Source: Promethearchaeia archaeon (lineage in GTDB: Archaea; Asgardarchaeota; Lokiarchaeia; Sigyniarchaeales; SOKP01). Taken from it: a stretch of 64,000 bases of DNA. Below the pieces are notes generated by a model. It made no database searches and was not told the origin of the DNA. It saw nothing but the letters and a program-made list of their open reading frames with translations. The stretch lies in contig JAHQWH010000224.1 in assembly GCA_029856105.1 (NCBI GenBank), positions 14,463 to 78,462 on the forward strand, written 5' to 3'. Both the position numbers and the translations under genes were made by a program. Below, piece by piece: positions 9,681-27,660 of the stretch (the first letter of the stretch is position 1; every line of letters starts with the position of its first letter).

Positions 9681-10559
9681 TTAAAGAATTGCCCCAGCTA
9701 AAGTATGTTTACAAGCACAATCTCTTTCAGTGTCTATTTTTGGAATAGTTAATTCCAACATTTTTTTAAGATTGTCAGCATTTTTCTCCATCGTCTCTAA
9801 AATCTCATCGATACTTACTGCGAGTTTTTTTACTGGACCTCCACATATTGCACACTTATCTTGAATCTCAACAACTCCGCAATTTGAACATTCTCCCGCC
9901 CATACATCTAAGTCAGTAACCATTGCAATACAACAATAGCATAACTCTTTTTCAGCTGCAAGAACTACTTCTGGATATGTTGTCATTCCAATGACGTCTC
10001 CACCCCATTGTCTGAACATTTTCGATTCAGCTCTTGTTGAAAATCGAGGACCCTCGATACAAACATAGGTACCACCATTTTGTATTTCTAACCCATCAAT
10101 AGATTTTCCAGTTTCGTAAAATAAATTATTTAAATAAGAACAATAAGGGTCTGCTTGGCTAATGTGACATACTTGCCCGCCTTCATAAAAAGTGTCCAGT
10201 CTTTTTTTTGTTCTATCAATGTATTGATCTACCATTACAAATTTGCTCTTATCATGCTCCTTTTTTAGAGACCCAACTGCTGAAGGTGAAATTATAACTT
10301 TTACTCCCAATTCTTTTAAAGCCCAGAGATTAGCTCTAGAATTTACTTTGTGCGGAGGTATTGTATGTCCAGCTCCATGACGAGCTAAAAACGCTACTTT
10401 CTTTCCTTTAAATTCACCAACTTTAACAAAATCAGATGTATTTCCATATGGAGTATATAGCTTTATTTCCTCAATGTTATCTAGTTCAACATCTGAACCC
10501 GTTCCACCAATAATTGCTATTGAAGCGGATTTCGACTTTAAATCCTGTTTTGATTGCAT
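9681..10559 (-). CDS. mtnP: S-methyl-5'-thioadenosine phosphorylase, with an inserted CxxC-x9-CxxC segment
   Basis: IIGGTG, LARHG, EGPRFSTRAES, GMT..PE, VTDLD; ATG at 10559 (TTG at 10571 also possible). Confidence 0.93.
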   Translation of the reverse strand: MQSKQDLKSKSASIAIIGGTGSDVELDNIEEIKLYTPYGNTSDFVKVGEFKGKKVAFLARHGAGHTIPPHKVNSRANLWALKELGVKVIISPSAVGSLKKEHDKSKFVMVDQYIDRTKKRLDTFYEGGQVCHISQADPYCSYLNNLFYETGKSIDGLEIQNGGTYVCIEGPRFSTRAESKMFRQWGGDVIGMTTYPEVVLAAEKELCYCCIAMVTDLDVWAGECSNCGVVEIQDKCAICGGPVKKLAVSIDEILETMEKNADNLKKMLELTIPKIDTERDCACKHTLAGAIL

Positions 10560-10631
10560 AATAAAAACCAATTTTTACTTATAGAAGTATTAGTTATTTT
10601 AAGGAATTATTTTTATTGAATATTTCTAATA

Positions 10632-12638
10632 TTAAAAAAAATTTAGAAAATTTAGCAAATCTTCATATAAAGAAGTATTTTTTTTCATTCCCTTGATGTA
10701 AGGTCGATCTTTTGTATATTGTAAAAGAGCTGGAGACATTTTATTATATTCAAACCTATATCCTTCTTTATGTGTGAAGCCAATACAATGAATGTCGTAG
10801 TTCAAATTTTTATTAATATATGTTAAACACGAGTTTAATAAATTAGCATAACAAAAAAATTGAGGTATTGATTGAAGAATCTCTGATTTATTTTGTTTAT
10901 AATCGAAAATAAGAATACAATTATCTACAATTCCTAAAAAATCAATATGACCTGTTTGAAAAACGAGTTTTTCTTTCCCATTAATAATGTTTTTTCCTAA
11001 AAATTTCCACACCGGAACTTCAACAGCCACGATATAATCAAAACATTGTAAAAATTGACTTTGTATAGGATAATGATATGGAATCTGAGAATACTTTTCT
11101 ATATAAGATTGGTAAATTTTATCTGCATACAAAATGATTTTAGAGGATTTTTGTAATTTTGTTAAAACTTGTTTAGATATAAAATAGTGTTCTATTTCGT
11201 CTACATTCGCTCTAAACTGAGGTGTTCCGATTAGTTTTAAATTAGATGCACGAAGGTCAGGATCAATAAAAGCTTCGAAAGGATAATTAAAATTTTTAAT
11301 GCTTATTAAAAAAGATTTTATAACCTCTGCAATCTCTCCATTATCATGCAAATTTTCGAATCTATAATTAAAACTAATGGATTTAGCGGTTTTAACTAAC
11401 GATGGTTTTACATATAAATGATGTTTTTCTAATATATGTAGAATCTCATAATAATCATAATCACGAATCTCTGTGGTTTCACAAAGAATTATAGTTGAAA
11501 AGCGTTCATGTGTAAACATGTAAAATATTGTTTTTATATACTTATTAATGAGACTTTTTTGTGTTTCAGATAATTTATCAAGATCCAAAACAGGCATGAC
11601 TTCAATAATAATAGAATCTACGGTATAATTGTCTAATACCATTCTATTTAGCTCTTTTGCGATAATGAGGATTATGGAAGATTTAAAATCACTCCATTGG
11701 TTAGTTGGAATGCCTGTTAAACCTAATTTATTTTTAATATTTTTAAAAATTCCTATGGAAACATCATACTCTTCAGCAAGAGCTAAAGCTGACATATAAG
11801 GATTTGTCAGCATAAGAAAACGTGCTCTAATATAGGTTTCAGCAAGAATTCTCTGTGTTTTGGATAAATTGTCAAGATCCAAAATAGGCGTGACTTCAAT
11901 AACAATAGAATCTACGGTAAAATCGTCTAATTTTAAGGAAGTTAACTTAATTTCAATATCTTGAATGATAGCATCTCTAATAGGGGGAAAATCTTTAGTT
12001 CTAATACCTGTTAAATCCAAAGTATTCTTTATGATTTTGAAATTGTCTATAGAAATATTATATTCTTCAGCAAGAGCTAAAGCTGATATATTAGGATTTG
12101 CCAGCATAAGAAAACATGCTCTAATATAGGTTTCAGCAAGAATTCTCTGTGTTTTGGATAAATTGTCAAGATCTAAAATAGGCGTGACTTCAATAACAAT
12201 AGAATCTACGGTAAAATCGTCTAAATTCAAGATTGTTAAATTATTTTCGATGTCCAGAATAATAGCATCTCTAATAAGGGGAAATTCTTCAGAAGGTATT
12301 CCCGTTAAATTTAAAGCGCTTCTAACCTTTTTAAAAACCGATCTGGGAATATTATATTTTTCAACTAGACCTCTAACAGACGTACTGCTTTCTGTAATTA
12401 AATAAAATGTCGCTTGAATGTATGTAATAACATACTCTCTTTGGGTTTTAGACAATCTATTCAGATTTAAATCTGACAAGACTTTTTTAATTATACTATT
12501 GCTCGTAAAAATTTTCAAATCTAAATTATTCATTTTATTGTATAGATCACGAATAACATCGTCCCTAAAAATTGTCCATTCTGTATTTGATATAAATACA
12601 TTTTTATCATTATTTTTTAACATATTGAAACTACCCAT
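10632..12638 (-). CDS. Tandem HTH-like repeat protein with C-terminal PD-(D/E)XK (RecB/Cas4-like) nuclease domain
   Basis: Four 98-aa repeats followed by VAVEVPVW...TGHIDFL...IFDYK...QFFCY (RecB-family E..D..D-x-K..QxxxY). Confidence 0.8.
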   Translation of the reverse strand: MGSFNMLKNNDKNVFISNTEWTIFRDDVIRDLYNKMNNLDLKIFTSNSIIKKVLSDLNLNRLSKTQREYVITYIQATFYLITESSTSVRGLVEKYNIPRSVFKKVRSALNLTGIPSEEFPLIRDAIILDIENNLTILNLDDFTVDSIVIEVTPILDLDNLSKTQRILAETYIRACFLMLANPNISALALAEEYNISIDNFKIIKNTLDLTGIRTKDFPPIRDAIIQDIEIKLTSLKLDDFTVDSIVIEVTPILDLDNLSKTQRILAETYIRARFLMLTNPYMSALALAEEYDVSIGIFKNIKNKLGLTGIPTNQWSDFKSSIILIIAKELNRMVLDNYTVDSIIIEVMPVLDLDKLSETQKSLINKYIKTIFYMFTHERFSTIILCETTEIRDYDYYEILHILEKHHLYVKPSLVKTAKSISFNYRFENLHDNGEIAEVIKSFLISIKNFNYPFEAFIDPDLRASNLKLIGTPQFRANVDEIEHYFISKQVLTKLQKSSKIILYADKIYQSYIEKYSQIPYHYPIQSQFLQCFDYIVAVEVPVWKFLGKNIINGKEKLVFQTGHIDFLGIVDNCILIFDYKQNKSEILQSIPQFFCYANLLNSCLTYINKNLNYDIHCIGFTHKEGYRFEYNKMSPALLQYTKDRPYIKGMKKNTSLYEDLLNFLNFF
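11412..12587 (-). repeat. Four intragenic 294-bp (98-aa) tandem repeats
   Basis: ggc(g/a)tgacttcaataa recurs at 11593, 11887 and 12181 (exact 294-bp period); repeats 2 and 3 are near-identical over about 170 bp. Confidence 0.93.
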
Positions 12639-12829
12639 TTTATTAATTTTTTTTCGAATCGAATTTTAAAAATTTATAGCAAAATTTTGAGGGATTTCTC
12701 ACTTAATAGTTAGAACCAAACTTAATTAAATCATATAGAGTTAAGATTTATCTTGAAAGAAATTATAAAAAGTAATATTAGGGATCAGAATTAAATTTAA
12801 TTCCTTATTATTTTTCTCCAAAATATAAA

Positions 12830-14287
12830 TTACATATAAAATCTATACTGTTTAGGTAAATTTTGAATTTTTCTTGCTCTTGCTTCTGCTAAAATTATTC
12901 CAACTCTATGAGATACTTTTAATGTGATTGGAAATTTACTACAAAATTCAGCATTATTCCAGTCCAATTTAGAAAAAGCCATAATTTCAGTTAATAATTG
13001 TTCATAAGTCGAATCACAGTCATGCAATTTGACGTAAAGGGGCGTAGGTACTTGGGAGCCAGGGTATGTGTTTAAAGCTGGGATAAAACCAGAAGTATAA
13101 AGAAAATGTTCATTGTTCGAAACTGATATTACCGTTCCTCTTACAACAGGATACTGATCATCAGTATAGAATCTAACACCTTTTCTTAATATACAAATAA
13201 AATTCTTATCTGAAATAGTTTTTGCACCTTCATTAAATCCCTTTAATTCTTCTTTATTAAATTCAGTGGATTTATGTATCACTATTCTCTGAGGTTCTTG
13301 CCCCATGTGGTTCTTATACTCATTCACGATTTCCATCATCAATGCAGAAGCATGATCTTCATCGAGATGAGGATTTCGATCTTGATTATAATCCCATGGA
13401 AATGGTTGTCCACGTAAAACATAACTCTGTCCTGTATGTAAAAATATCTGTGCCATACTTACACCCATCTCTCCCCCTTGTTCAATATTATCTGGATAAA
13501 ACCCTACTCCTGCATAACATGTTCCTGGGTATAAATCAATTACTTTCCAAGGGATTCCTGTAGCTTTATAATAGAGCCCGACTGAAAAATTCCAAGCAAC
13601 CATCGATGGATCTTGCGTTTCGCCTTCTTCTTGAGTCCAAGTTCTTTCGGTGACTAATTGAGTTGGTTTTTGGTATTTTAAACCAATGGTTTTGATTATA
13701 TTATGAAAGTCTAGATCTCCACCACTCATTTGAGCAGCTAGAATGGATTTATCGCTGAAAGTTCTTTTAGCAAATTTCACAATATGTGTTTTCATACGTT
13801 GTTTTTGAAAATGACCTAATTCCTCATTCATTACTGCTAGTAGTATGATATGAGGAGGTGGTTCTCTAACAATCATAGCATCCATTTTTTTTTCAAAAAG
13901 ATTAATGTATTCTTGTCCTTTTTCAACTCGGGAAAGTTTTTGAAGACAAGCATCAAATTCTTTTTTAGTAATAATATCTTCCCAAGTTTTTGATAGAGAA
14001 ATTTTACAATTAATTTTTGAAATTTGAGAAAGACCAGGAAAAAGGGTTAAATAATCCTTATCTTTATCAATTGGATAAATCTTATTTGAGAGATTGTAAA
14101 GAAAAGGTTTAATTCCATTGATAGAATTAACAGTTCCAATAAGTCCCACTCGGATGGGTAAGTATTCTGCTTCTTTATTAATATCTGGTCCACAAGGGCC
14201 GTATTTTATTAGTCCAATACATGGATTAACATCTCTACGCCCCCTCGAAAATATTAATTCTGGTTCACTGATTCTCCATACTCTCAT
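12830..14287 (-). CDS. ago: Short prokaryotic Argonaute (MID-PIWI, catalytically inactive)
   Basis: N-terminal EPELIF...GLIKYGP; MID DFHNIIK...PTQLV...WNFSVGLYYKATGIPW; PIWI CYAGVGFY, VIHKST, PVVRGT, SKLDWN, PITL, C-terminal RFYM; DEDX aspartates are replaced. Confidence 0.93.
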   Translation of the reverse strand: MRVWRISEPELIFSRGRRDVNPCIGLIKYGPCGPDINKEAEYLPIRVGLIGTVNSINGIKPFLYNLSNKIYPIDKDKDYLTLFPGLSQISKINCKISLSKTWEDIITKKEFDACLQKLSRVEKGQEYINLFEKKMDAMIVREPPPHIILLAVMNEELGHFQKQRMKTHIVKFAKRTFSDKSILAAQMSGGDLDFHNIIKTIGLKYQKPTQLVTERTWTQEEGETQDPSMVAWNFSVGLYYKATGIPWKVIDLYPGTCYAGVGFYPDNIEQGGEMGVSMAQIFLHTGQSYVLRGQPFPWDYNQDRNPHLDEDHASALMMEIVNEYKNHMGQEPQRIVIHKSTEFNKEELKGFNEGAKTISDKNFICILRKGVRFYTDDQYPVVRGTVISVSNNEHFLYTSGFIPALNTYPGSQVPTPLYVKLHDCDSTYEQLLTEIMAFSKLDWNNAEFCSKFPITLKVSHRVGIILAEARARKIQNLPKQYRFYM

Positions 14288-15693
14288 CCTGATACCTTCT
14301 TATGTATTTTAAGTAAATAATTTTCTTGTAATTCATATTTTTCAACTTCCTTTTTAATAGTTGGTCGATAATTCAACTCAAAGAGTAATGGTTTCCCCAT
14401 GCGTATTAATTCTAAATGCTCTTGAACCCTTTTGGGGTTATATTGTATAGTTTTAAAATACTCTGACAAAGGTTTTATAAATAAATACCAATACCAGAAG
14501 GTGAAAAATCGGGATTGACCTCTATTAAAATTACTTTTAGAACTTCTCATTTCTTCATGATGTTTCTTAATTTCCTCAGATGAGCAAAAATTATAACCGT
14601 TAGTGGTGAAAATCCATGTAGGAATTAATGATAAATATATTCGATTCTCAAGATAAATTGGTTTTATCTTTACAGCAAGATGCTGGAAATTAAAGACATC
14701 TCCCGTGGTTTTTGAGGTGTAAGCTTTTAGACATGTTAAACCTTTAGAACCAGATACCCATCTCTCTCTAATTCTGTCCCAATCTTTTTTACTTGTATCT
14801 TTTTTTGGGAAAACTCGCGGTCTAAATTTATAGTAAACAGTTTTGGATTTTAGGATATAACTTAGATGCTTTTTTCTTAAAAAACATAATTCCTTGATCC
14901 ACTTATTTATTAACTCAAATATGTAGCGCCGAGTAGATTCTTTAGATAACCAGTCATGAAGATCTACTAATTTGAGAGTATCAAAATCAATTATATCTCC
15001 AAGCTGTTCTAATTTTTCTACCTTACTAATTGTAATAAATTTTTCTTCCTTTAGAATAAAGGGTGGTAAAATCACTTTTTTCTTTTTAGCTTCCTCAAAT
15101 ATATTATAATAAGTTCTAAATTCCGTATCAGCTATGCAAAATAATTCTTTAGGGATTTGAACGGGAATTAGATTAGCAAATAAATAACCTAATTGCTTAA
15201 CAGGCTCAGTTTCAATTCCTTCTATCCGATTTAGCTCTAACTCATATCGGTTTTTATTAACTACCTTATATCTTTTTTCTCTCAATTTTTTTAGAATTTC
15301 TGGAGAGTATTTATCCCGTGTAAGATCCGAGTGTGTATGAACTTGGTCATGATGATTTAAGCATAGTAAAATAAGATTATCAAACTCATTATTTTGTGAT
15401 ACTTCATAGGGATCTATGTGATGGATTATGACAGGTAATTTGTTTCCAAATTTACATAAAACACATTCAAATTCGCTTTTATTCAATAGTTTGTAGAAAT
15501 CCTTGTTTGGAATTCGTTTTCTCTTTATTTTTTCTTTCCATTCTTTGACCTTGTTCTCTGAAAAGATTTTTAGTAATTCTTTAATAGAAGTTGTTCTTAT
15601 TTTGGTTAAATTATAATCTCGATTAAGAATCTCCTCAGCATGCTCTTGAGAAATCCCATATTGCATTAATTTAGCTTTTCTTTTTAGAATCAA
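14284..15693 (-). CDS. HNH-APAZ effector partner of short pAgo (SPARHA-like)
   Basis: HNH: CVLC...IIHHIDP...NEFDNLILLCLNHHDQVH; APAZ-like: FANLIPV, QHLAVKIK...IYLSLIPTWIFTTNG...N...FWYWYL; ATGA overlap with ago. Confidence 0.88.
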   Translation of the reverse strand: MILKRKAKLMQYGISQEHAEEILNRDYNLTKIRTTSIKELLKIFSENKVKEWKEKIKRKRIPNKDFYKLLNKSEFECVLCKFGNKLPVIIHHIDPYEVSQNNEFDNLILLCLNHHDQVHTHSDLTRDKYSPEILKKLREKRYKVVNKNRYELELNRIEGIETEPVKQLGYLFANLIPVQIPKELFCIADTEFRTYYNIFEEAKKKKVILPPFILKEEKFITISKVEKLEQLGDIIDFDTLKLVDLHDWLSKESTRRYIFELINKWIKELCFLRKKHLSYILKSKTVYYKFRPRVFPKKDTSKKDWDRIRERWVSGSKGLTCLKAYTSKTTGDVFNFQHLAVKIKPIYLENRIYLSLIPTWIFTTNGYNFCSSEEIKKHHEEMRSSKSNFNRGQSRFFTFWYWYLFIKPLSEYFKTIQYNPKRVQEHLELIRMGKPLLFELNYRPTIKKEVEKYELQENYLLKIHKKVSG

Positions 15694-15885
15694 TTTTTAC
15701 AACCCTTAATAGCTTATTTTGATGTCCTTATCTTTAACAAAAAAGTAAGAACTTCAAAGTCTAATTATTAAAGGTTTATTTAAAAATTAGTGGAGTTTAA
15801 AAAATTAGAAATTTCTTGTTTTTAGATTTATATATATACTTTATAATAGTATTTTTTTAACCTAAGTAATTTAATATTAATTTTT

Positions 15886-18879
15886 TTATTTAAACTTATT
15901 AAACATTATTTTTGGGAGTTTTTCAAAAATTACCTCAATATCATCAAACCAGTAATTTAAATATTCATTAATACGTGATTTCAATTTTGTAGTATCATCA
16001 GTTCTTAGTAATAATTTGAAATATACTTCATATCCTTTATATGTAAACTTCCTTTCAACATTTTTGATTTCAAATAAGTTTTTAAAACCTATTACTTTAT
16101 CTGTCCAAGCTAAGTGTTCAGTACCTTTAGGATCAATAAATAATATGGTATAATAATTATCTTTTTTCAACCAAAAAATGAAATCTGGAAAAAAATTCCT
16201 TTTTTTATTAGAATCATAGTATGGAATAAAAATTCTATCTATACTTTCATCTATTTTACTAAAAAACCACCAATCAAATTCTTTAAATTTATTATCTTCT
16301 TCTGCTAAATACTCTTCTAAAGCATTGACAAATTTAACTTCGCTTTCTACTTTAATAATATGTTTGATAAAATCGATATCTTTATCCATTGTCTTTAAGA
16401 TAGGGTTATAATAATGGTTCTTGTTACTAACTAAATTAAACTTCTTTCTATTTATCGTGAATTCTTCCAAATCATGAAATCGTCTTACTTTCTCTTCATA
16501 TTCTTCCCTTGAAATTTTTCCATATAAATCGTCTAACTCTTTCTTTTTCAAATTCAAATCTTTTGCAAGCTCAAGTATAGCTTCAAAATCTTCGAAATAT
16601 TCCGCTTTAACACAAATCTTTTTATAATGTCCTATTTCTTCGGTTAATTCTTTTAACTCTATGTCTTTAATTAATGTAAGATCAAAAAAATTGAATAAAT
16701 TTTGTATTTGAATATTCATATTAATATAATTATCAATATTTAGAGAGAAATTTCTTTTATTCACTATGAATTCTCTTACTTTTTTTATTTTTTCAGGAGA
16801 TGTATTAAAATTCATAAGAATTATCCTATCATCCTCTATATAATTGAAATAACGAATTATTTCTTCATAATTTTTTATAGCAATTTTGTATTTAGGGATA
16901 TTCTTATTTCGTAGAACTGGTTCATCGGAATAAATGGGCTTTGGGATGAGAAGAGGGATATCTTTTATCGAGGGGTTCTTCTTAAAAGAGGAGAGAATAA
17001 GGTCTATACTTTTTTTTCTTAAATCATCCAATTGTTGGAGGATAGTTGTAATTACTTCCCTGTTCGTAGCATATATAAAAAGCGTTTCTAAGGGTATTAT
17101 GTTTTTCTTTAGTTTATTGTAATTTTTTTCGGATAATTCTTCATTTGGGATAATTCCCGCGTTAAATAAATGGTTTAATCGTTTTCTTCTATTTTTAATG
17201 GGTTCAATACGTACTCCACGTCCAACTGATTGAAGAATGAATTTTTTTGAATCTTTTTTCAGTCCAATATTAATAAAATTAATTATATTTGGTCTATTAG
17301 AGTCCCATCCTTCATAAAATGATTGCGCGCCTATTAAAATATTAGTACTTGAGTATTCCTTGTTTAATTCTTCAAAAAATGTATCTTCCTCGAACTTCTC
17401 TTGAATATCATAACCATATAATTCAGATTTAATCCACTTTGAGATATCTCCGATCTTAAGAAGTGCGAAGGGTTTATTGCTTGTTTTCAATTTAAAAGCT
17501 AATTCTTGTTTATTTGAAATCCTTCTGATTATCTCAATATCTCCAAGACTATTTGAATTATAGACGGATCTTAAAATATCTTTTTGTGTAATATTTCTGA
17601 AGTCAGCCACCTCATATTCAAATTTTGCTTTCGGCTCAAATGTATACTTGAGATCTTCGTTGAGATCTTTTATAAGACCATCCAAGGCAGATTTAAATAA
17701 ACCTTTTTTTATTTGTTTTTTACCAATTTTATGTAGGACTCTAAAAAAAAGTTTTAAATCAGCATTGTTAGTATTTACCGTTTTTCCTAAAACTAAATAC
17801 AAGGGTTTATGGTATAAGTTTTTTTGAATCTTTAAAACTTCTTGATATTTTTTTTTTGTATAGGTGAGCAGAATAAGAGATTTCAAAATATTTTCTACTT
17901 TTTCAATATCATTAAAGTCTTCTTTTTCTCTAAAACCTGCAATATCTTCGTGAAGAACTTTAAGATGCTTCCCAAATCCATTATTAGTAAATGTTGCTAG
18001 ATTATATTCATAAACACAAGTTAAAATATCTCTAATATCAATAAAGGTCGCTGAAAAATTAAACAGAAAACCATTTCTTGAGATTAAAGAAAAGATATAT
18101 TGCCGTTTCGATTCTTCTTTATCTCCTTTATGTGCTTCATCTAAAAAAACATAACATTCTCCATTATAAAAATAATTTCTAAAATCTATAATCCTTTCTT
18201 TTTGAATATCGCTTAGATTATCTGAACGGTAATAATATACAATTATATCTCCTTCTCTTAACAGGTGCCTTTGTTTCTTTATTTCGGGTAATTCTCTTAA
18301 GTCCTTTAATATAATATTGGAGTAATTATTATATTTATTAAATTCTTCCACCAAAACTTTAAATTGATTTATTAGGTTATCTTTATGCGTTAAAAATAAT
18401 ATATCAATATCTGGAATTTCTCCTCGGTCAATTAGAATTTTTAGGATATCAATCATTTTTACTATTATCAGAGATTTTCCACTTCCTGTAGCCATCCAAA
18501 AGCTCATTCGATTTATAAACTCCTTATAGCTTAATTTATCTTCTACATCTGGATAGACCTCACCGAGAATTAGCTTTATATCTTCCCTAATTTTCTGAAA
18601 ATCAATATCGATATCAGTATCTAAACCATTTTCTTCATAAGCTTGAATTATTTTTAATTTTCTCGCATCATTTATATTTAAATGCTCATCTTTAGTAAAA
18701 TCAGTCAGATTTTGATAATATTTCCATAAAGCTTTAATAGCGTTCTTAACAGCATTTCGTTGATAAGGAAATAATATTTTATCCTTTGAAAAATTTAAAA
18801 AATTAAAATTTCTCCAATTCTCTTCCAAGAGGTCGAAGTTTATATCATCTATTATGTGCTGAAGTAGAATTTCAGTTAT
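15886..18879 (-). CDS. res: Type III restriction enzyme Res subunit (SF2 helicase + PD-(D/E)XK); start extended to ATA at 18879
   Basis: MATGSGKS, LDEAH, FSATF, EGWD, QSVGRGVR, FFPDFIFW...FIDPKG. Confidence 0.92.
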   Translation of the reverse strand: MTEILLQHIIDDINFDLLEENWRNFNFLNFSKDKILFPYQRNAVKNAIKALWKYYQNLTDFTKDEHLNINDARKLKIIQAYEENGLDTDIDIDFQKIREDIKLILGEVYPDVEDKLSYKEFINRMSFWMATGSGKSLIIVKMIDILKILIDRGEIPDIDILFLTHKDNLINQFKVLVEEFNKYNNYSNIILKDLRELPEIKKQRHLLREGDIIVYYYRSDNLSDIQKERIIDFRNYFYNGECYVFLDEAHKGDKEESKRQYIFSLISRNGFLFNFSATFIDIRDILTCVYEYNLATFTNNGFGKHLKVLHEDIAGFREKEDFNDIEKVENILKSLILLTYTKKKYQEVLKIQKNLYHKPLYLVLGKTVNTNNADLKLFFRVLHKIGKKQIKKGLFKSALDGLIKDLNEDLKYTFEPKAKFEYEVADFRNITQKDILRSVYNSNSLGDIEIIRRISNKQELAFKLKTSNKPFALLKIGDISKWIKSELYGYDIQEKFEEDTFFEELNKEYSSTNILIGAQSFYEGWDSNRPNIINFINIGLKKDSKKFILQSVGRGVRIEPIKNRRKRLNHLFNAGIIPNEELSEKNYNKLKKNIIPLETLFIYATNREVITTILQQLDDLRKKSIDLILSSFKKNPSIKDIPLLIPKPIYSDEPVLRNKNIPKYKIAIKNYEEIIRYFNYIEDDRIILMNFNTSPEKIKKVREFIVNKRNFSLNIDNYINMNIQIQNLFNFFDLTLIKDIELKELTEEIGHYKKICVKAEYFEDFEAILELAKDLNLKKKELDDLYGKISREEYEEKVRRFHDLEEFTINRKKFNLVSNKNHYYNPILKTMDKDIDFIKHIIKVESEVKFVNALEEYLAEEDNKFKEFDWWFFSKIDESIDRIFIPYYDSNKKRNFFPDFIFWLKKDNYYTILFIDPKGTEHLAWTDKVIGFKNLFEIKNVERKFTYKGYEVYFKLLLRTDDTTKLKSRINEYLNYWFDDIEVIFEKLPKIMFNKFK

Positions 18880-18882
18880 TTA

Positions 18883-21420
18883 TTACCACCATATTAAGTC
18901 CTTTATTATCTTAAAATCTAAATCATCAAGATTAATAGTTTCGTCATTTTCAAATACTATTAAATTTTCTTCTATCTTTTTAATATTTTTTCCAAATAGA
19001 TTAGAAAGAGATTCGTGTACATCAACTTTATCGTATAATTTGGTAAAATCAACATTGACCGAATTTTTCTCATAATCTATTTCTAAAGCGTCAATCAATT
19101 TAGGGTCTTTCAAAAATATATAATTATTGTAAGGATCCTTTTGAGAAATCTCAAAAAACTCAGTATCTTTATATTTAGCTTTCTTTAAGATATCTTCATA
19201 TTGTTCAAGTTCATAATACTTAAAAAATCCTCCACCTTGCCAATTAACCATTTTTGTAATTCCAACTTTTTTTATATTTTTAGTAGCTCTTTCTCTACCA
19301 GCTAAAACTCTCTTCATTCTCGGTAAGACAACCTTATTATAATGTTCTCCCATTTCAATACCTATCCACTTTCTTTTTAATTTTTGAGCAACTGCACATG
19401 TAGTACCTGAGCCGAGAAAGAAGTCTAAAACGATATCATTAACGTTACTCGTAGACAATATTATTCGGGCTAACAATTTTTCAGTTTTTTGTGTATTAAA
19501 TCCCTGATTTTCATTTCGATTTATTGCAGAATGTCTGAAACTTTGTATATCAGTCCACACATTTCCAATTACATCAAAGAAGTATATCTCATCCCAGTCT
19601 TGGTCTATTTTTAATTTTTTAAAAAGAGATCTTTTAGTAAACATACCATTTTCCCAATATGGCATATACAAATCATTAAATATCGTTTTAATTTTTCCCT
19701 TTTCTTTAATCTTTGTGGTTGTAGCAATCAAATTAGGACTAAATGGTTGAAATAGGCCATCTGAAAAATAGTTAATATAAGAATCCTCGATTAAATAGCT
19801 TTTAAGTAATTCTAAACATTGATTTGTAAATTTGGGTTTATTCTGACCTTTTAATCCTATGAGATATCTGTCTTTAATTTTTACAATCTTATTAAAGGTG
19901 AATTGATCACTTTTTGAGTAGTGTAGAATAATTTCCGATTGTTCCACGAACTTCTTTGGTATTATTTCATGCTTTTTATTGAAACCGAGAAAAGTGCAGA
20001 TATCAGCTCTAAAATTACCTTCTTGAAATATCGAATTTAAAAGGAATTTACCTAAATAATTAGCATTATCATCTAAATGCATAAAAATACTTCCTTTTGA
20101 GTTTAATAAATCTTTAGCCAGATCTAAACGATTCTCCATAAATGTAAGCCATGTAGAGTCTTGGAATTTGTCAATATAATCAAAATCTTGACCAGTGTTA
20201 AAAGGGGGATCAATATATATGGTTTGGATTTTATCTCTAAATTTGTTCAAAATTGTTCGAAGACCTTGATAATTTTCGCTCTTAATAAGCCACCCATCTA
20301 AATTATTATGTAAATTATCAAATACATTTAATATATCATATTTTATATCTGGAAAGTACTTGGTATCTATTGGAAGATATTTATAATTTAAATTAAGTTT
20401 CAGTCCTTCTAAATCTCTAACATAAATTTCTTTTTTATCAAATTCTTCATCAAGTATACCAAGGTCTCTCCATTCTTTTATTTGCTGATCCAAATTTGAA
20501 TGATTAAATATTTTTTTTATGATTTCAAAATCTATATCAGCAATCTTGTTAAGGGTTATGACATAATCAGAATTCTTAACAAATCTTGGTTTATTCCAGA
20601 TTTTTACTAATTCGTTTTCAAATTGACTAATAAAATCAATAATCTTATATGAAAAATCTCTTAAAATTTGAAGTTCACTAATGCGATTTTCCGTCCATTT
20701 ACTCTCACCTTTGAAAATATATTCATAAATCCAGAGATTGAATTGTTCTTTTAGAAATTCTTTTACATTCTTATTAATAAAAAAATCTATTTCACTTTGT
20801 TTATTAAAGACTTTAAATGCTTTAAGTACCAATTGTCTTGAAATATTTATACTATTTTCTTTTATATTTTTTAGAATTCCTGTTAGTTTTGCCTCACTCG
20901 GTTGAGCATTTATTACTTTAAAACTCAAATCATTATTTTCTCCTCTTTTCTTAAATTCAAAATATAATTGTTTGTTTTTATTATATTTATTCTTATCAAG
21001 AGAGTCCATGTTAAAACTGAATCGAAAATCCTCTAATTCAAAATGTAAATTTTCAAAAACCCTCTCAGTCTTAACATAATAGAGCATATGAGTCTTCCAA
21101 AAAAGAAATATATCTTTATTATCAGTATATACTCTCTCATAAATATTTTGATGTAGAGGAGTATATTGAAAATATATCGAGCCAATTTCCGAAAAGTATC
21201 TTTTGAAAAAGGTGTATAACTTATCGAAAAACTCTTCTCTAAAATCTGAATATTCTTCTAATTTCTTGTTAATATCTTGTTTGAGTATCTTAAAAATTTT
21301 CTTAAAATACAAGGATTTAATTCTTATTAAATTTATATAACCTGATTTAATTTCATCCTCAATTTCAACTCCTATAAATATTTTTTCTAATGTTTCATAA
21401 AATAATTCTTCCTTTGTTAT
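18883..21420 (-). CDS. mod: Type III R-M Mod subunit (N6-adenine methyltransferase, beta class); start extended to ATA at 21420
   Basis: IYIDPPF precedes LDFFLGSGTT; LFWKTHMLYYVK; in-frame N-terminal TKEELFYETLEKIFIG...GYINLIRIKS upstream of the annotated TTG. Confidence 0.92.
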   Translation of the reverse strand: MTKEELFYETLEKIFIGVEIEDEIKSGYINLIRIKSLYFKKIFKILKQDINKKLEEYSDFREEFFDKLYTFFKRYFSEIGSIYFQYTPLHQNIYERVYTDNKDIFLFWKTHMLYYVKTERVFENLHFELEDFRFSFNMDSLDKNKYNKNKQLYFEFKKRGENNDLSFKVINAQPSEAKLTGILKNIKENSINISRQLVLKAFKVFNKQSEIDFFINKNVKEFLKEQFNLWIYEYIFKGESKWTENRISELQILRDFSYKIIDFISQFENELVKIWNKPRFVKNSDYVITLNKIADIDFEIIKKIFNHSNLDQQIKEWRDLGILDEEFDKKEIYVRDLEGLKLNLNYKYLPIDTKYFPDIKYDILNVFDNLHNNLDGWLIKSENYQGLRTILNKFRDKIQTIYIDPPFNTGQDFDYIDKFQDSTWLTFMENRLDLAKDLLNSKGSIFMHLDDNANYLGKFLLNSIFQEGNFRADICTFLGFNKKHEIIPKKFVEQSEIILHYSKSDQFTFNKIVKIKDRYLIGLKGQNKPKFTNQCLELLKSYLIEDSYINYFSDGLFQPFSPNLIATTTKIKEKGKIKTIFNDLYMPYWENGMFTKRSLFKKLKIDQDWDEIYFFDVIGNVWTDIQSFRHSAINRNENQGFNTQKTEKLLARIILSTSNVNDIVLDFFLGSGTTCAVAQKLKRKWIGIEMGEHYNKVVLPRMKRVLAGRERATKNIKKVGITKMVNWQGGGFFKYYELEQYEDILKKAKYKDTEFFEISQKDPYNNYIFLKDPKLIDALEIDYEKNSVNVDFTKLYDKVDVHESLSNLFGKNIKKIEENLIVFENDETINLDDLDFKIIKDLIWW

Positions 21421-21477
21421 AGTTCCTCACCTTTAATGTACAAGTCTTAATTTTTAGAGAATATGAGAATATTTTTC

Positions 21478-22473
21478 TTAGATTTCTTTAAATATATTCA
21501 AACAGGGTGTTTGAATTCCTTGAAATTTATTTTTCCAATGATATACAACTCTTAGTATCTTTTTACCATTGGATTGAATAATACAATTAGTTTGATCATC
21601 CGCAAAAGCTATTTTTACATCGCTCTTAATTATCCCTTGAATCTCTTTTCCCAAATCATCTTTAGAAACGATGATTTTACCTTGTATTTCGTTAGTATAA
21701 TAAACATAGTATATGTTAAGAATTTTAAAAATATCATTATATTTCAAGTTCAAAATATGGTTTAGTTGTTCTCGGGTGTGATATCCGATATACATTGCTA
21801 TTATAAATTTTTTTATATACTCGGGATCTTGTTCAATGTCCTTCAGATAATTTAAATAATCAATTTTGTCTTGTCTAGCGAATTTAATTATTGTACAAAT
21901 TATTGATGCTACTTGACTTATACTTGGTGTATTTATGTAATTACAAACAACACTCGCAATATATTTTTTTCCTGTTTTTTCAATGAACTTCTTTTTGAGA
22001 AAAGCCCCTTTTTTTTTAATCTGATTATTTATAGAGCCACTGCCTAGATTACTCGGATACTCTTTATATTCGTTCAATAAATCTAAAACTCGTTTAGGAA
22101 AGTTATAGTTGTCTCTATATTCACTCCAGGACATTATATCTTCTTTTTTAAATAAATTAGATGTTGTTAAAGCCTCTTGGCTAATATTAGCCAATGTGCC
22201 TTTTCCTTTTTTCGATTCACTCATCTTTAATTCAATATATATCCAATCATCAGTTAATATTTTAATATCTCCAATTTCTCCTGCCCCATATGTATTTCCA
22301 ATATGTTCTGCTTGTTTAATATCTCCGAAATCTCTTATTATTGCTTTCTCCGTTTCTAATGAATGTTTAATCCATTTATTCTTTTTTTGTTTAGCAGATA
22401 TAATTTTTTTGTTTAATAAATCAACCACTATCCTTTCTGCGTCTTCAATGTCTTGTCTTTCGTGTTGGCCCAA
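21478..22473 (-). CDS. Putative type II restriction endonuclease (PD-(D/E)XK)
   Basis: IGDIKIL...IYIELKMS catalytic-type motif; located between a wHTH regulator and R-M genes, divergent from a gamma-class MTase. Confidence 0.72.
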   Translation of the reverse strand: MGQHERQDIEDAERIVVDLLNKKIISAKQKKNKWIKHSLETEKAIIRDFGDIKQAEHIGNTYGAGEIGDIKILTDDWIYIELKMSESKKGKGTLANISQEALTTSNLFKKEDIMSWSEYRDNYNFPKRVLDLLNEYKEYPSNLGSGSINNQIKKKGAFLKKKFIEKTGKKYIASVVCNYINTPSISQVASIICTIIKFARQDKIDYLNYLKDIEQDPEYIKKFIIAMYIGYHTREQLNHILNLKYNDIFKILNIYYVYYTNEIQGKIIVSKDDLGKEIQGIIKSDVKIAFADDQTNCIIQSNGKKILRVVYHWKNKFQGIQTPCLNIFKEI

Positions 22474-22525
22474 ATTTATTACCTTAAGAAATAATACTTT
22501 AAGTCTATTTTAAAAAGACATTAAA

Positions 22526-22561
22526 GGTAATGTCCAAATACTTACCAGATTATTACCAGAA
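22526..22561. promoter_or_regulatory. Operator-like TTACCAGA direct repeats (11-bp period) with an inverted GGTAA, upstream of the REase
   Basis: TTACCAGA at 22542 and 22553; GGTAA at 22526. Confidence 0.55.
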
Positions 22562-22566
22562 AAGAG

Positions 22567-22824
22567 TTATAGTTCAGATTTTATTTTCTCAGAAATTTTT
22601 TTTCCTAATTCAGTTAAAGTATAAATCTTTCCTTTTTTTGATGTTTCATTCAGACATTCTACAACATTTTTGCTTTTTAACTCTGATAAAGCACGACTTA
22701 TATGAGATAATTGAATTTTTAATTCTTTAGCTAATGTACTGGGTAAATAATTCTTATATTTTAGTTTTTCAACAATTAATCTTCGATAATTACTTGCCAT
22801 TATATATCCAATATCATCCCACAT
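22567..22824 (-). CDS. Winged-helix (ArsR/MarR-like) regulator, putative R-M controller
   Basis: PSTLAKELKIQLSHISRALSELKSKNVVECL...KGKIYTLTELG; ATG at 22824. Confidence 0.85.
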   Translation of the reverse strand: MWDDIGYIMASNYRRLIVEKLKYKNYLPSTLAKELKIQLSHISRALSELKSKNVVECLNETSKKGKIYTLTELGKKISEKIKSEL

Positions 22825-22864
22825 TATTATCAATTAGAAAATTTGAAATAAAGATAATAAATTA

Positions 22865-22904
22865 TATTACCATAATATTACCAAATTATTACCAATACCA
22901 GATT
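22865..22904. promoter_or_regulatory. Operator-like TATTACCA tandem repeats (11-bp period) in the divergent regulator/MTase promoter
   Basis: TTACCA at 22867, 22878 and 22889, plus TACCAGATT at 22896. Confidence 0.6.
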
Positions 22905-22948
22905 AATAAAAAAATATAAGTTTAAATTGAAAACACTAGAGGAATAAT

Positions 22949-24499
22949 ATGCTAGAACCGAAAGAAAATGAACTCAATAAAGAAAAAGATTTAGGATTAG
23001 TTACGACTCCCCTTAAAACTGCTGAATATATCATTTCGAAGCTACTACCCTTAGAGAATAAAAGAATCTTAGACCCTTGCGTCGGCCCCGGTATTTTTAT
23101 TAAGAAACTCCTTGAAGCGGGTGTACGAGAATCTCAAATTCAAGCATTTGATATTAATTCTGATTATAGAAATCAAATAGAAGCTATGGGTGTTAATTTT
23201 AAAAAACAAGATTACTTATTATCCCTCTCGGCTTTTAACTATAATGAGTTTGATATAATAATTGGAAACCCTCCATACTTGAATAAGGCTAGTCAATATG
23301 TGAGAAAAAATAAATCTAAATTACAAAAGATATATGGTAAGATAAATGCACATGAAACATATTCCATGTTTATTGTTAGTAGTATTAGGAGATTAAAAAA
23401 TCGAGGAAAACTGGGTTTTATCACTAGTGATTCTTTTTTAACACTTAATACCCATACAAAATTAAGGAGATTTATTTTAAGTACATGTAAAATTATGGAA
23501 ATTCTGTTACCTCCTAAAAATTTATTTGATGATCAAAATGTTAGCACGAGTCCTGTAATCATTATTTTAGAGAAATGTTCAGGTAAAGAAAATAAGAAAG
23601 AGAGATTTAATAACATAGTAAGAGCAATTCCTCGAATAACAAATGAGGAAGAATACTTAAATCCCCTGAAAATATTTGAATTTAAACAAGAAAGATATCA
23701 CCAATTACCTTTTCAAATATTTTTTACTAATATTGAAGAAGAAATAATTGATTTGTTTGCCAATTCCTCTCGATTGGAAAATTACATAAAAGGTGATATA
23801 GGTATGCATACTCGCAACAATTTGGAACATATTGCAGCTATTGAAGGTACAGAATTAGCTGAAATTTTTAAAAAACGAAATAAAAGTATCAAGGATCAAA
23901 ATAAGCAATATACTATAATAACTGAAGAGGAATTAAGCTCTAATAGGTGGAAACCGTATATGAAGCGTGGAGGTGGTGACCAATACTATAGACCAATAAT
24001 GGAAGCTGTTGATTGGAGAGAGGAATCTGTAAAAAAATACATAATACCAAAAAATATTGAATTCCAAAAAGAAGGAATCGTATTCAGTGGTGTTAGTTCA
24101 CGATTAGCCGTAAGATATATGCCAGAGGGGTGTTATTGGGACTCTAATAAAGCAATTGGCTTCTATATTATAGATCAAAATATCTCCATAGAGTATGCAT
24201 TAGGAGTTCTTAATTCTTCACTATATAACTACCTAATGAAGGGTATTTTAAATAATACAAACTCTATTCAAATAACTGGAATCAAGGCATTACCATTTAT
24301 CCCCCCCGATAATGGTATTAAAGAAAAAATTGAAAATTTGGTTAGAATAATTATTAATAATAAAAAAAAAGATTGTAATTATGATTATACTGAGGAACAA
24401 AAAGAAATTGATAATATTATTTTTGAATTCTACACAAAACGGTTTAATTTCAAGGAAAACTTGAAAAAGAAATTAAATAAATACTATTCTATCTATTAA
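22949..24499 (+). CDS. Type II N6-adenine DNA methyltransferase (gamma class, TaqI/Eco57I-like); on the + strand despite the ORF-track label
   Basis: ATG CTA GAA CCG reads on + at 22949 and TAA at 24497-24499; ILDPCVGPGIF (motif I) precedes IIGNPPY (motif IV); C-terminal LGVLNSSL...LPF. Confidence 0.92.
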   Translation: MLEPKENELNKEKDLGLVTTPLKTAEYIISKLLPLENKRILDPCVGPGIFIKKLLEAGVRESQIQAFDINSDYRNQIEAMGVNFKKQDYLLSLSAFNYNEFDIIIGNPPYLNKASQYVRKNKSKLQKIYGKINAHETYSMFIVSSIRRLKNRGKLGFITSDSFLTLNTHTKLRRFILSTCKIMEILLPPKNLFDDQNVSTSPVIIILEKCSGKENKKERFNNIVRAIPRITNEEEYLNPLKIFEFKQERYHQLPFQIFFTNIEEEIIDLFANSSRLENYIKGDIGMHTRNNLEHIAAIEGTELAEIFKKRNKSIKDQNKQYTIITEEELSSNRWKPYMKRGGGDQYYRPIMEAVDWREESVKKYIIPKNIEFQKEGIVFSGVSSRLAVRYMPEGCYWDSNKAIGFYIIDQNISIEYALGVLNSSLYNYLMKGILNNTNSIQITGIKALPFIPPDNGIKEKIENLVRIIINNKKKDCNYDYTEEQKEIDNIIFEFYTKRFNFKENLKKKLNKYYSIY

Positions 24500-24845
24500 A
24501 ATAACATTTATGATATCTCAATGCTATTAATTTTAATAAATCATAAGGGATAAAAAATTTTAGACCCTTTCTGGTTTTTGAATGAGTTTTTCCCGGTTTA
24601 GAATAAAATCTTACGGATATTAGAGGATATGTTAACAATTAAGATTTAGCTTCTTTAGATAAATATTTAGAAAGAAAGGAGAAAGAAAAGGAAAAAGAGG
24701 AGAGAAACAAGAAAAAACCCTTACTTTTTGAAATTGCTGGTAAGGATAGAGATGATTGGTTACAGGAACGCTAAAACCACAATATTTGATTCTTAACTCA
24801 TAAATTACTAAAAGGTCGTTCTTATTCTGTGGTAACTATATTCCC

Positions 24846-25031
24846 CTATTTTTCTAAAGGTTTAATATATAAAATAGCTCCACAGGTGGGACACTCCTTT
24901 TCTATATCACCAATATCAAATTTAACCATATTATATTTATGGTCTTTGGGATTTCCTTGTATGTTAGAGCAACTAGGACATACAAATGCCCATCCATTTA
25001 ATTTGAATTCTCCAATATAAATTTTTTTCAT
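24846..25031 (-). CDS. Small Zn-ribbon protein
   Basis: CPSC...CPTC; ATG 10 nt after the stop of the upstream HEPN gene. Confidence 0.65.
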   Translation of the reverse strand: MKKIYIGEFKLNGWAFVCPSCSNIQGNPKDHKYNMVKFDIGDIEKECPTCGAILYIKPLEK

Positions 25032-25041
25032 AATTTTTTTC

Positions 25042-26019
25042 TTAATATTTTTTTGTAATTTGGATATTCTTATCTATTTTTATAAGTTTAGTTATTAATG
25101 GACTTGGAAAACCAGAGCCTTTACATATTTCAAATCCATTATTATTTGAAATTGCAACACATATCGTAGAATAATCTGATACTTTTTCAAGTTTTATTCT
25201 CTCTAAATCTGTTACCTCAAGACTATGCATTTGTTCCTCAAATTTTAACGCTTGTGCTATTTTTTCTACAAAAAAGTTAAATTCTCGAAATGCTAGTTTA
25301 AAAAAATCATAAGCATCTCTATTATTGTATTTATAATTTTGTGGTTGAGCTTTTGGATTATCTGGTAAAATAATTAATAATTTTTCTTTAGGGTAAATTT
25401 GTAAATAAGAATGAATAACTAAATTGAAAATATGTTGTTCAATATTTCTATACTTTCGAATCAATTCACCGTTACTTTTCCAATATTCTTTTACAATTCC
25501 TTGTATCTCATGTGAAAATCTTGATAAAAGATTTTTATTATCTACAAAAGAATAAAATGAATTTAGAGCCTTTTTGAATTTTTTTTTATACTTTTTATAA
25601 TGTTGTTCAGTTTCGTTTTCTTTGATATCTCGTGGCTTAAGAGAGATATTACCGGCTTTGGCGATTATAGGCATTATTCGGTCTTGAAGTATATACATCG
25701 TATTCAAAAAAGGCATAAGCAATGATAAATATTCATCTACTATAGATGATTGAAAAACAAAATGCTTACATTTTAAACTGAGCTTTGATTTCATTTCTCT
25801 AAATTGAATAATACTTGCATCATTAAGCATTTCCATTTGTTCAAGTATTCTATAGTCATTTTTTGCGAAAAACATAATTTCAGTAGCTAAATGAAAATAA
25901 TTCATATAGTCTTTATTAACATCTTCTTCTATTGATTTATTTTCTGATTTTTTAAGAAACTGATACCTTAAACCATTAAACTTCAGAAAATATTTTTTCT
26001 TATTAAAAATTAGACTCAT
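25042..26019 (-). CDS. Putative HEPN-domain (Cthe_2314-like) RNase
   Basis: Helical protein with R-x4-H motif (YRNIEQH) preceded by LNTMYILQDRI; likely ATG at 26019, 5 nt after the upstream stop. Confidence 0.6.
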   Translation of the reverse strand: MSLIFNKKKYFLKFNGLRYQFLKKSENKSIEEDVNKDYMNYFHLATEIMFFAKNDYRILEQMEMLNDASIIQFREMKSKLSLKCKHFVFQSSIVDEYLSLLMPFLNTMYILQDRIMPIIAKAGNISLKPRDIKENETEQHYKKYKKKFKKALNSFYSFVDNKNLLSRFSHEIQGIVKEYWKSNGELIRKYRNIEQHIFNLVIHSYLQIYPKEKLLIILPDNPKAQPQNYKYNNRDAYDFFKLAFREFNFFVEKIAQALKFEEQMHSLEVTDLERIKLEKVSDYSTICVAISNNNGFEICKGSGFPSPLITKLIKIDKNIQITKKY

Positions 26020-26024
26020 TTTAC

Positions 26025-26663
26025 TTAAAAGTGAAAATCTTTTTTTCCAAGTATTAGATAACCTTTTACTCCAATTAATAACCATATTATAGGAAAACTT
26101 ATCATAAATATTAGAAATATAAGACCCATCTTAGTTAGTAATAAGTAAGCCCCTATATATCCTCCAGTACCTATCAGACCATAATATACAACCCACACAT
26201 TCCTTACTAAAAATGCTTTCCAAAAGTTAGTATTTTCCTCTTTCTTATCTTTATATTTTGGTTTTTTACTTGTACTAATTCGACCAAGTAAATCAAATAC
26301 ATAAAAATTTTTAAAGGAATCAGTGTTGAATTGTTGTTTTAATCCCTTACCTTTATAATTATCCGTACTATTAATAAAATCTTGAATATCTTGCATCCGT
26401 GTAATCCAAACTCTTTGATATAACTTGAAAAATGTGTCAAGCATCCAAAAAATCAGACTAATAGAAGTGCTATAAATAATGATAATAGTCCCTTGAATAT
26501 TTAATTGAAATCCTAAGATAATAAAAGCTGACCATAGCGTTATACACCATCCTTTAATCTTAAAAGAAAGATTGTCGTAATCCTTAATCCTCTCTTGAAC
26601 CATCACTGCTTCTTTCATTAAAAGTTCTTTCTGATACTCAATAAAACTCATAATTTTAATCAT
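26025..26663 (-). CDS. Multi-pass membrane protein with NLSFKIKGW...FWMLD motif (defence-associated TM effector-like)
   Basis: Two N-terminal and two C-terminal hydrophobic helices; conserved-looking SFKIKGWCITLW and FWMLDTFF segments. Confidence 0.65.
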   Translation of the reverse strand: MIKIMSFIEYQKELLMKEAVMVQERIKDYDNLSFKIKGWCITLWSAFIILGFQLNIQGTIIIIYSTSISLIFWMLDTFFKLYQRVWITRMQDIQDFINSTDNYKGKGLKQQFNTDSFKNFYVFDLLGRISTSKKPKYKDKKEENTNFWKAFLVRNVWVVYYGLIGTGGYIGAYLLLTKMGLIFLIFMISFPIIWLLIGVKGYLILGKKDFHF

Positions 26664-26713
26664 TTTCTTTATTATTAATAATTTTAGACATAAATGACTT
26701 TTAAAAGAGAGTA

Positions 26714-27345
26714 TTAAAGGTTTGTTAATTCAGTTTGACAAGAGATTTTCTTTTGCTCTCTCAATCTATTTTTATTTCCTAAGCTACATATTATTGTGGC
26801 AAATCGTCAACTTTTCATATAATTTTTTCTTTTTGGCTCTAATTCTCCAAAACTATTGGAATCTTGTAACTCGTTGTAGCTTTTATACTCTAACAGAAAA
26901 TTATTTCTAACAGGATTAGCCTCAATTGAGAAGGCGTGAATATCATGAACATGCTTTTTATTGTATTTTCTAATAAATTCTTTAAAATCATCCCAAAATG
27001 AATCTTTCTTTAAACATCTGCCAAGTGTTCTCTGTGAAGGGTTAATATCAGGCTCTAATAAATTCAGATCCAATATTACATCTTCCAATCTTGCTCCATT
27101 TGGATATATTGCCTTTATCTCGTGTTCTGGTATGCATTTCCCTTGTTTATCTCTGCGAGAATAATCAATATAACGAATAAAATATTTCAATCCATAATCG
27201 GCTAAGGATTCCCCCGTATTGCCCTTACTCAGTTTTAACGCTCCCAATCGTTCTGGATACTCCTTTTCTATATCACAGCCAAAATCCTCTGCCAACTCAA
27301 ACTGCGAGTAGTTGCGGGCTATAGTATTTTTATCAAATTCTTCTC
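26714..27345 (-). pseudogene. Degraded PD-(D/E)XK nuclease-like gene (5' truncated, internal TGA at 26807)
   Basis: GNTGESLADYGL helix and HDIHAF...FLLEYKSY; frame stays open about 30 codons past the TGA; no credible start. Confidence 0.45.
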
Positions 27346-27524
27346 TGTTAAAGAGAATCTTAGAAAAAATAGAAAAACTATGGGAAAATTCCCCAAATTT
27401 AAGATTTGAACAATTTATACAGAATATTTTTGGATCTTCATTGACAGAGGAGGCATGCAATGGTTTAACGGAACTGGGTTTATTAGAAAAAAGAACAGAA
27501 AACGAAAAAAGTAAAGAAAATTAA
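27346..27524 (+). pseudogene. Fragment of a small phage-type YihD/DUF1040-like protein
   Basis: LKRILEKIEKLWENSPNLRFEQFIQNIF resembles the RI..IL..I...W...PDLRF.Q small-protein family; N-terminus missing. Confidence 0.4.
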
Positions 27525-27660
27525 ATTTTTCATATTTTAATCCTTTTTTCTATGTTTGAATAATACTAAATAAAAAACTTGATATTTTTGGATTGTTTTA
27601 ACTAAGTAAAAAGTTTTTTGATATTTTATAGTATAATAAGTTATCTAAATTAAAACAACA

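Follow-up and report, generated by a model that had tools for sequence, protein, structure and literature searches.

The question raised by this locus is whether a nuclease gene lying next to a short prokaryotic Argonaute (pAgo) gene belongs to the Argonaute system or is an element in its own right. The gene was found in a 64,000-nucleotide stretch of contig JAHQWH010000224.1 (assembly GCA_029856105.1, from a Promethearchaeia archaeon), which is referred to here as the window. Its product, a protein of 668 residues designated P0001, comprises four tandem repeat units of 98 residues followed by a C-terminal module with nuclease motifs. The initial annotation had suggested that P0001 may be a third component of the pAgo locus, and that its repeats could read DNA according to a logic loosely analogous to that of TALE nucleases. 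Our analysis leads to a different answer. The linkage between P0001 and pAgo is not conserved in either direction, and the nuclease module characterises a lineage-restricted family of archaeal proteins, the stand-alone form of which is a syntenic core gene. We consider it fairly probable that P0001 is an autonomous accessory nuclease and not an Argonaute component, in which a PD-(D/E)XK module is directed by the four-unit array, with DNA as the likeliest ligand.

The repeat organisation of the gene is highly regular. Tandem Repeats Finder reported a 294-bp period (score 913) over positions 11753-12289, and a repeat search of the gene recovered four in-register copies with a spacing of exactly 294 bp (Table 1). 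Units 2 and 3 are 80% identical at the amino acid level and 87% identical at the nucleotide level, and they share a common tract in which 108 of 109 nucleotides are the same; the remaining pairs of units show 27-40% amino acid identity. The terminal helices, located at residues 98-109, 196-207, 294-305 and 392-403, differ from unit to unit. Five orthologues with 80-100% identity, originating from independent ENA, JGI, NCBI and Logan assemblies, all possess the four units at equal length. The four-unit repeat can therefore be attributed neither to chance nor to an assembly artefact, an objection that the initial annotation had itself raised. As the orthologues begin at the residue equivalent to M6 of P0001, the true start of the protein may be the ATG at 12623. 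On the repeat period, the near-identical scaffold of units 2 and 3, the variable terminal helices and the co-directional arrangement with the pAgo gene, the initial annotation proved accurate, and the same applies to the motifs and the domain fusion described below.

The C-terminal ~258 residues of P0001 contain the motifs VEVPVW (E540), GHIDF (D566), DYK (D579/K581) and QFFCY (Q593/Y597). Nucleases of the RecB family carry, in this order, an acidic residue, GxxD, (D/E)xK and QxxxY, and P0001 follows the same order, including a QxxxY motif after the (D/E)xK strand. When 48 homologous C-terminal modules were aligned, E540, G563, K581, Q593 and Y597 showed no variation and H564, D566, W544 and C618 almost none, D566 being found in at least 90% of the sequences. 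All of the RecB/Cas4-type motifs named initially are present, with key residues invariant among the homologues. The Pfam profile PDDEXK_1 (PF12705) gave weak matches in 38 of the 48 homologues at E<=1 (best E 7e-6), and Cas_Cas4 (PF01930) gave matches in 11 of the 48 at the same threshold, in all cases over the motif region. When ten homologues were scanned singly against PDDEXK_1, one exceeded the cut-off (24.9 bits vs 22), and the rest scored 17-21 bits. The motifs are preceded by a family-specific helical subdomain (residues 411-530) with conserved P453, F457, S465, G471 and H522, and the module as a whole is basic, with an isoelectric point (pI) of 8.7. The prediction that the C-terminal module is a divergent member of the RecB/Cas4-like branch of the PD-(D/E)XK superfamily, fused to four tandem helical units, holds on the basis of these motifs and profile matches.

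In Cas4-family and ACE proteins, four conserved cysteines, one N-terminal and three C-terminal, bind a 4Fe-4S cluster (PMC12094033). These four cysteines are not conserved in the 48-module alignment, where C618 is the only cysteine to be nearly invariant; C532, C574, C596 and C604 of P0001 are not conserved. Given that the four defining cysteines are not conserved, the module was filed outside the Cas4 family proper. Compared with RecB/Cas4-like nucleases, P0001 exhibits the same motif order, and its homologues show weak but consistent profile matches over the same region, whereas the cysteines of the 'iron staple' are missing and a family-specific helical subdomain and a tandem-repeat fusion are present. 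Judged by its motifs, P0001 is predicted to be a nuclease of the RecB/Cas4-like kind that lacks the Fe-S staple, belongs to a lineage-restricted family and is fused to an orphan repeat.

This restriction to one lineage is apparent from database searches. HMMER, run exhaustively over 1.84 billion representative proteins, returned only 69 matching proteins, all of which matched through residues ~400-665, except one 46-residue fragment of the N-terminus of P0001 itself. A profile of the module matched 143 of the 301 genomes of the phylum: 65 of 68, 7 of 7, 64 of 76 and 3 of 3 in four families, and almost none in the others. The usual form of the module is a single stand-alone open reading frame (ORF) of ~245 residues, which at the genus level is found in the order ribosomal protein L15e, nuclease, 90-residue membrane protein, 338-residue protein. 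Long forms of 430-1200 residues occur as sporadic additional paralogues, and their N-termini carry tandem repeats with periods of ~61, 71, 75, 85, 92, 105, 127 and 163 residues. No relationship was detected by hhalign among eight repeat types, except between two that overlap in the same proteins. The 85-residue repeat, for instance, is present in ~5, 3 and 6 copies upstream of the nuclease module in the related metagenomic proteins P0012, P0013 and P0015, respectively, with a conserved pattern that is roughly AP(T/S)L..L...GY..F..A.....I.YS.....GL. A hidden Markov model (HMM) of the 98-residue unit showed no similarity to the N-termini of all family members and, with HMMER and these N-termini taken together, no homologue of the unit was found outside its orthologue cluster.

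As the arrays of the long paralogues are unrelated, the combination of a repeat array with this nuclease module is a recurrent construction, of which the 98-residue unit is an orphan version. The initial annotation had not recognised the architecture of P0001. This stands only in part, since the combination recurs at the level of the family and it is the repeat types that are unrelated to one another. What is new is a nuclease module that defines a lineage-restricted family, together with sporadic long paralogues bearing unrelated repeat arrays. P0001 is the only member of the family found in its own genome. The idea that it replaced the stand-alone module there was rejected, as the syntenic neighbour gene was likewise not found; because this neighbour is absent too and the genome is 92% complete, the stand-alone gene probably lies in an unassembled region.

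In AlphaFold models, each repeat unit of P0001 comprises five helices (predicted local distance difference test score, pLDDT, 47.6 for the full-length model and 72.8 for a two-unit model). Helices 3-5 superpose weakly on helix-turn-helix (HTH) domains, including those of TrpR, DnaA domain IV, FapR and sigma region 4. In the classical HTH pattern of 20 residues, a small residue stands at position 5, N or D at the turn, and hydrophobic residues at positions 4, 8, 10, 15 and 18. Read directly against this textbook pattern, the last two helices of units 1-3 agree with it, and unit 4 is acidic and degenerate. Going by the sequence pattern, the initial claim that each repeat ends in an HTH-like motif fits units 1-3. 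Units 1 and 3 end in helices rich in lysine and arginine.

Evolutionary comparison is the most telling evidence on the repeats, as the two parts of the unit have evolved differently. Over the first 66 residues, the identity between units 2 and 3 of the same protein is 0.85 in P0001 and 0.94 in P0007, and 0.64-0.74 in the other three orthologues, compared with a mean of 0.74 between orthologues. This excess of within-protein over between-orthologue identity indicates that, in two lineages or more, this part of units 2 and 3 has undergone concerted evolution. Over the last 32 residues, units 2 and 3 of the same protein are 0.56-0.69 identical, and orthologues are 0.86-0.87 identical. These residues thus differ from unit to unit but are preserved from one orthologue to the next, so that the terminal helices carry a unit-specific function. 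The ratio of nonsynonymous to synonymous substitution rates (dN/dS) lies between 0.29 and 0.90 in the individual repeat units and between 0.25 and 0.30 in the nuclease module; three neighbouring housekeeping genes have values of 0.06-0.18.

Several results weigh against the view that P0001 is an autonomous nuclease directed by a DNA-binding array. P0001 itself has no match in Pfam, NCBIfam or PADLOC, falling below every HMM threshold, and no match was obtained when P0001 or the profile of 48 C-terminal sequences was searched against the PDB sequences, so that it is the homologues and the motifs that carry the nuclease assignment. Residues 412-668 have a pLDDT below 35 in the full-length AlphaFold model, which was built on a shallow alignment of five sequences. 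With the two-unit model, Foldseek and VIA-align yielded only sub-threshold matches, none of which rose above the noise expected for helical proteins. Units 2-4 are acidic (pI 4.1-5.2, net charge -9, -3 and -5), which is unusual for DNA-binding arrays, and unit 1 is the only basic one. Finally, the P0001 gene adjoins a pAgo cassette in two lineages, namely this genome and the ancestor of a related locus (L004), and a strain-level functional interplay with the cassette may exist. A PHROGs search with P0001 returned only short, meaningless stretches.

In the alternative that survives best, the array would act as a scaffold for protein binding or regulation, or would mimic DNA. Its acidic units 2-4 would then bind a partner or auto-inhibit the basic nuclease module, and the HTH-like pattern would be merely a packing motif of a helical repeat. 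The opposite charges of units 2-4 and of the C-terminal module fit this explanation, as do the lack of a significant fold match to DNA-binding families, the restriction of the repeat unit to its orthologue cluster and the raised dN/dS of the repeats, which reaches 0.9 and is typical of interfaces in conflict. It does not readily account for the agreement of the last two helices of units 1-3 with the canonical HTH pattern, nor for the Lys/Arg-rich terminal helices of units 1 and 3, and the weak structural matches of helices 3-5 are mostly to HTH domains. We regard a scaffold or mimic as possible, if on the unlikely side.

The proposal that P0001 acts together with pAgo is best judged from the locus itself. 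The short pAgo gene matches the PADLOC model for class I pAgos (E 6e-128) and its partner matches HNH and APAZ-type models, so that the two genes upstream of P0001 fit the SPARHA type; the P0001 gene is co-directional with pAgo and lies 191 bp downstream of it. The whole region between the PNP/MTAP and beta-CASP genes (window 10572-27660) is a variable hotspot, as seen by comparison with four other loci (L025, L026, L027 and L001), and in this genome it is occupied by ~17 kb of defence genes. The site is empty in G002 and G008, two genomes of the same genus in which the PNP/MTAP gene directly abuts the beta-CASP gene. In the closest species, the cargo comprises dehydrogenases and an AsnC-type regulator, which are unrelated.

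The orthologues of P0001 are found in different surroundings. In L001-L003, which encode an 85% identical orthologue, ~187 bp of the upstream intergenic region is kept at 93% identity and is followed by a gene for a 1388-residue TPR protein. In L004, where the orthologue is 90% identical, a 446-bp 3' remnant of pAgo (98.5% nucleotide identity) is joined through an 8-nucleotide filler to the beta-CASP flank; a deletion of ~14.3 kb removed the HNH-APAZ gene, most of pAgo and the remainder of the island, and left the P0001 orthologue intact. Upstream of the 80% identical orthologue in L036, there is again a different gene. Since the ~187 bp accompany the gene even where pAgo is absent, they are likely to contain its own promoter. 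The P0001 gene thus behaves as an independent accessory gene that has an upstream region of its own and lies at a hotspot of cargo exchange.

The converse comparison gave the same picture. The cassettes whose pAgo is 85% and 59% identical to the one in the window are followed by genes for a 256-residue protein and for a 689-residue OLD-type protein with AAA_15 and TOPRIM domains, respectively. The 256-residue protein downstream of the closest pAgo orthologue matched no family, and the possibility that it is a stand-alone member of the nuclease family was rejected (hhalign probability 0.5%). No pAgo was found in the context of the four other long-member loci that were examined. Among 17 genomes with long members, a short pAgo is present in only two, each time on a contig other than that of the long member. 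The third genes beside the SPARHA cassette vary among the closest cassettes.

Under the third-component explanation, the repeat-nuclease would act with pAgo and HNH-APAZ, for example in guide generation or target processing, along the lines of ACE1/ACE2 of long-A pAgos or of three-gene short-pAgo systems such as SiAgo/Aga1/Aga2. Its appeal lies in the co-directional neighbourhood, which the pAgo remnant in L004 documents once in a second lineage too, and in precedent. Cas4-family nucleases are co-encoded with pAgos: ACE1 and ACE2 of the APACE systems are bacterial Fe-S proteins of ~280-310 residues, with a conserved association of ACEs with long-A pAgos and some ACEs co-encoded with long-B or short pAgos (PMC12094033). 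An archaeal three-protein short-pAgo system is also described (PMC11788926). P0001 resembles ACE1/ACE2 in that a PD-(D/E)XK nuclease gene adjoins a pAgo gene, but its neighbour is a short pAgo with HNH-APAZ, the ACE-defining cluster of four cysteines is absent, and the association is not conserved either way. At least three other contexts contain an intact orthologue but no pAgo, and the upstream 187 bp are conserved independently of pAgo. Furthermore, the characterised SPARHA functions as two proteins and is self-sufficient in vitro and in vivo (PMC12738770), and in the closest relatives the repeat-nuclease is not part of the cassette. A role of P0001 as a third SPARHA component, as first suggested, is therefore very unlikely.

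The weakest alternative, namely that the units are TFIIB/cyclin-box-like repeats and that a transcription-factor-B-like core guides the nuclease to promoter-like DNA, is highly improbable: five helices per ~98-residue unit would fit, and the core domains of TFIIB, TFB and Brf ranked first in both Foldseek searches, but with a probability of at most 0.6, E 0.17-3.5, a template modelling (TM) score of ~0.25 and a root-mean-square deviation of 13-15 A, and an hhalign comparison with the six TFB paralogues of the same genome gave a probability of 0.4%. These TFB (TFIIB-repeat) paralogues are encoded on contigs C34, C226, C115, C74, C227 and C215 of the genome (G000).

Returning to the autonomous accessory nuclease, the following mechanism can be proposed. 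The module most likely cleaves DNA with a divalent metal, as its motifs suggest. We infer that the array is the targeting module, because the last two helices are HTH-like, unit-specific and conserved between orthologues. Each of units 1-3 would have its own contact, for which DNA is the likeliest partner, and the acidic, degenerate unit 4 could serve as an adaptor to the nuclease. Gene conversion has homogenised units 2 and 3 over their first two thirds. In the sporadic paralogues, the module has been fused to N-terminal tandem-repeat arrays of unrelated sequence types. The P0001 gene occupies the PNP/MTAP-proximal edge of a hotspot that exchanges cargo, the SPARHA cassette included, and its biological role may be defence-like or selfish.

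The comparison with TALE nucleases (an engineering concept) and with homing endonucleases bearing repeated HTH/NUMOD modules holds in some respects. In both cases, a catalytic domain is combined with an array of similar units, with unit-specific residues in a defined helix, and in the wider P0001 family the copy number varies for one repeat type. In contrast to TALE repeats, the units of P0001 are 98 rather than ~34 residues long, there are only four of them, and three of the four are acidic. The acidity of units 2-4 argues against DNA reading of the TALE type, and the proposed change of specificity by repeat expansion finds no counterpart in the orthologues, in which the number of units is fixed at four (five of five). 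A more ambitious proposal, which we judge unlikely, is that one PD-(D/E)XK module, archaeal and apparently Asgard, repeatedly captured unrelated arrays and gave rise to nucleases that are naturally programmable for sequence, with a defence-related or homing-like role. In P0001, with its four units, the terminal HTH-like helices would each read a distinct DNA element and be kept distinct by selection, while gene conversion homogenised the scaffold.

Table 1. Positions of P0001, its parts and the compared loci. Positions refer to the window unless a locus (L) is given.
Feature	Location	Strand	Remarks
P0001, whole ORF (668 aa)	10632..12638	-	Stop codon 10632-10634
Repeat unit 1 (aa 19-116)	12291..12584	-	Basic, pI 9.8; putative recognition helix PRSVFKKVRSAL
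Repeat unit 2 (aa 117-214)	11997..12290	-	Acidic, pI 4.1; terminal helix SIDNFKIIKNTL
Repeat unit 3 (aa 215-312)	11703..11996	-	Terminal helix SIGIFKNIKNKL
Repeat unit 4 (aa 313-410)	11409..11702	-	Most divergent unit; acidic terminal helix RDYDYYEILHIL
Conserved C-terminal module (aa 411-668)	10635..11408	-	Helical subdomain and predicted PD-(D/E)XK core
Catalytic motif region	10848..11021	-	E540...D566...D579-Y-K581...Q593xxxY597
191-bp intergenic region upstream of P0001	12639..12829	-	
SPARHA-type cassette	12830..15693	-	Short pAgo 12830-14287, HNH-APAZ 14284-15693; context, not part of the feature
L004 junction (contig from GCA_965195155.1)	L004:1-1108		Equals window 27983-27559 + 13275-12624
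Closest SPARHA cassettes	L038:4097-7728, L039, L040:1497-6508		Different co-directional gene within 25-51 bp downstream
Stand-alone module gene	L010:1345-2070, equivalents in L009, L011-L016		Syntenic in genus

Some further genes of the region were noted. Upstream of the SPARHA cassette (window 15886-21312) are genes for a 980-residue ResIII/DEAD helicase-like protein and an 809-residue protein. The identical contig L037 annotates the latter as N6_N4_Mtase, and the pair looks like a type III-like restriction-modification system. The PNP/MTAP-family protein (window 9681-10571, minus strand) exhibits a cysteine-rich segment near its C-terminus (CSNCG ... CAICG), with weak zinc-ribbon-like Pfam matches (PHF5, E 0.008). 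Arf/Rag-like GTPase genes are also located nearby; together with the six TFB paralogues, they agree with an Asgard origin of the DNA.

These results dismiss a tempting but unsupported reading, that of an Asgard short-Argonaute system with a third, TALE-like nuclease component. Instead, they point to an undescribed, lineage-restricted branch of PD-(D/E)XK proteins, the core form of which is near-universal in several related archaeal families, and the accessory paralogues of which were built by joining the module to tandem-repeat arrays of different types. Should these arrays read DNA, the family would constitute a natural source of modular sequence-specific nucleases, and would also illustrate how a repeat can be split by gene conversion and selection into scaffold and specificity parts. 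If they do not, P0001 would be an ordinary accessory nuclease in a variable region. The main interest lies in the recurrence, across the family, of fusions to different repeat arrays.

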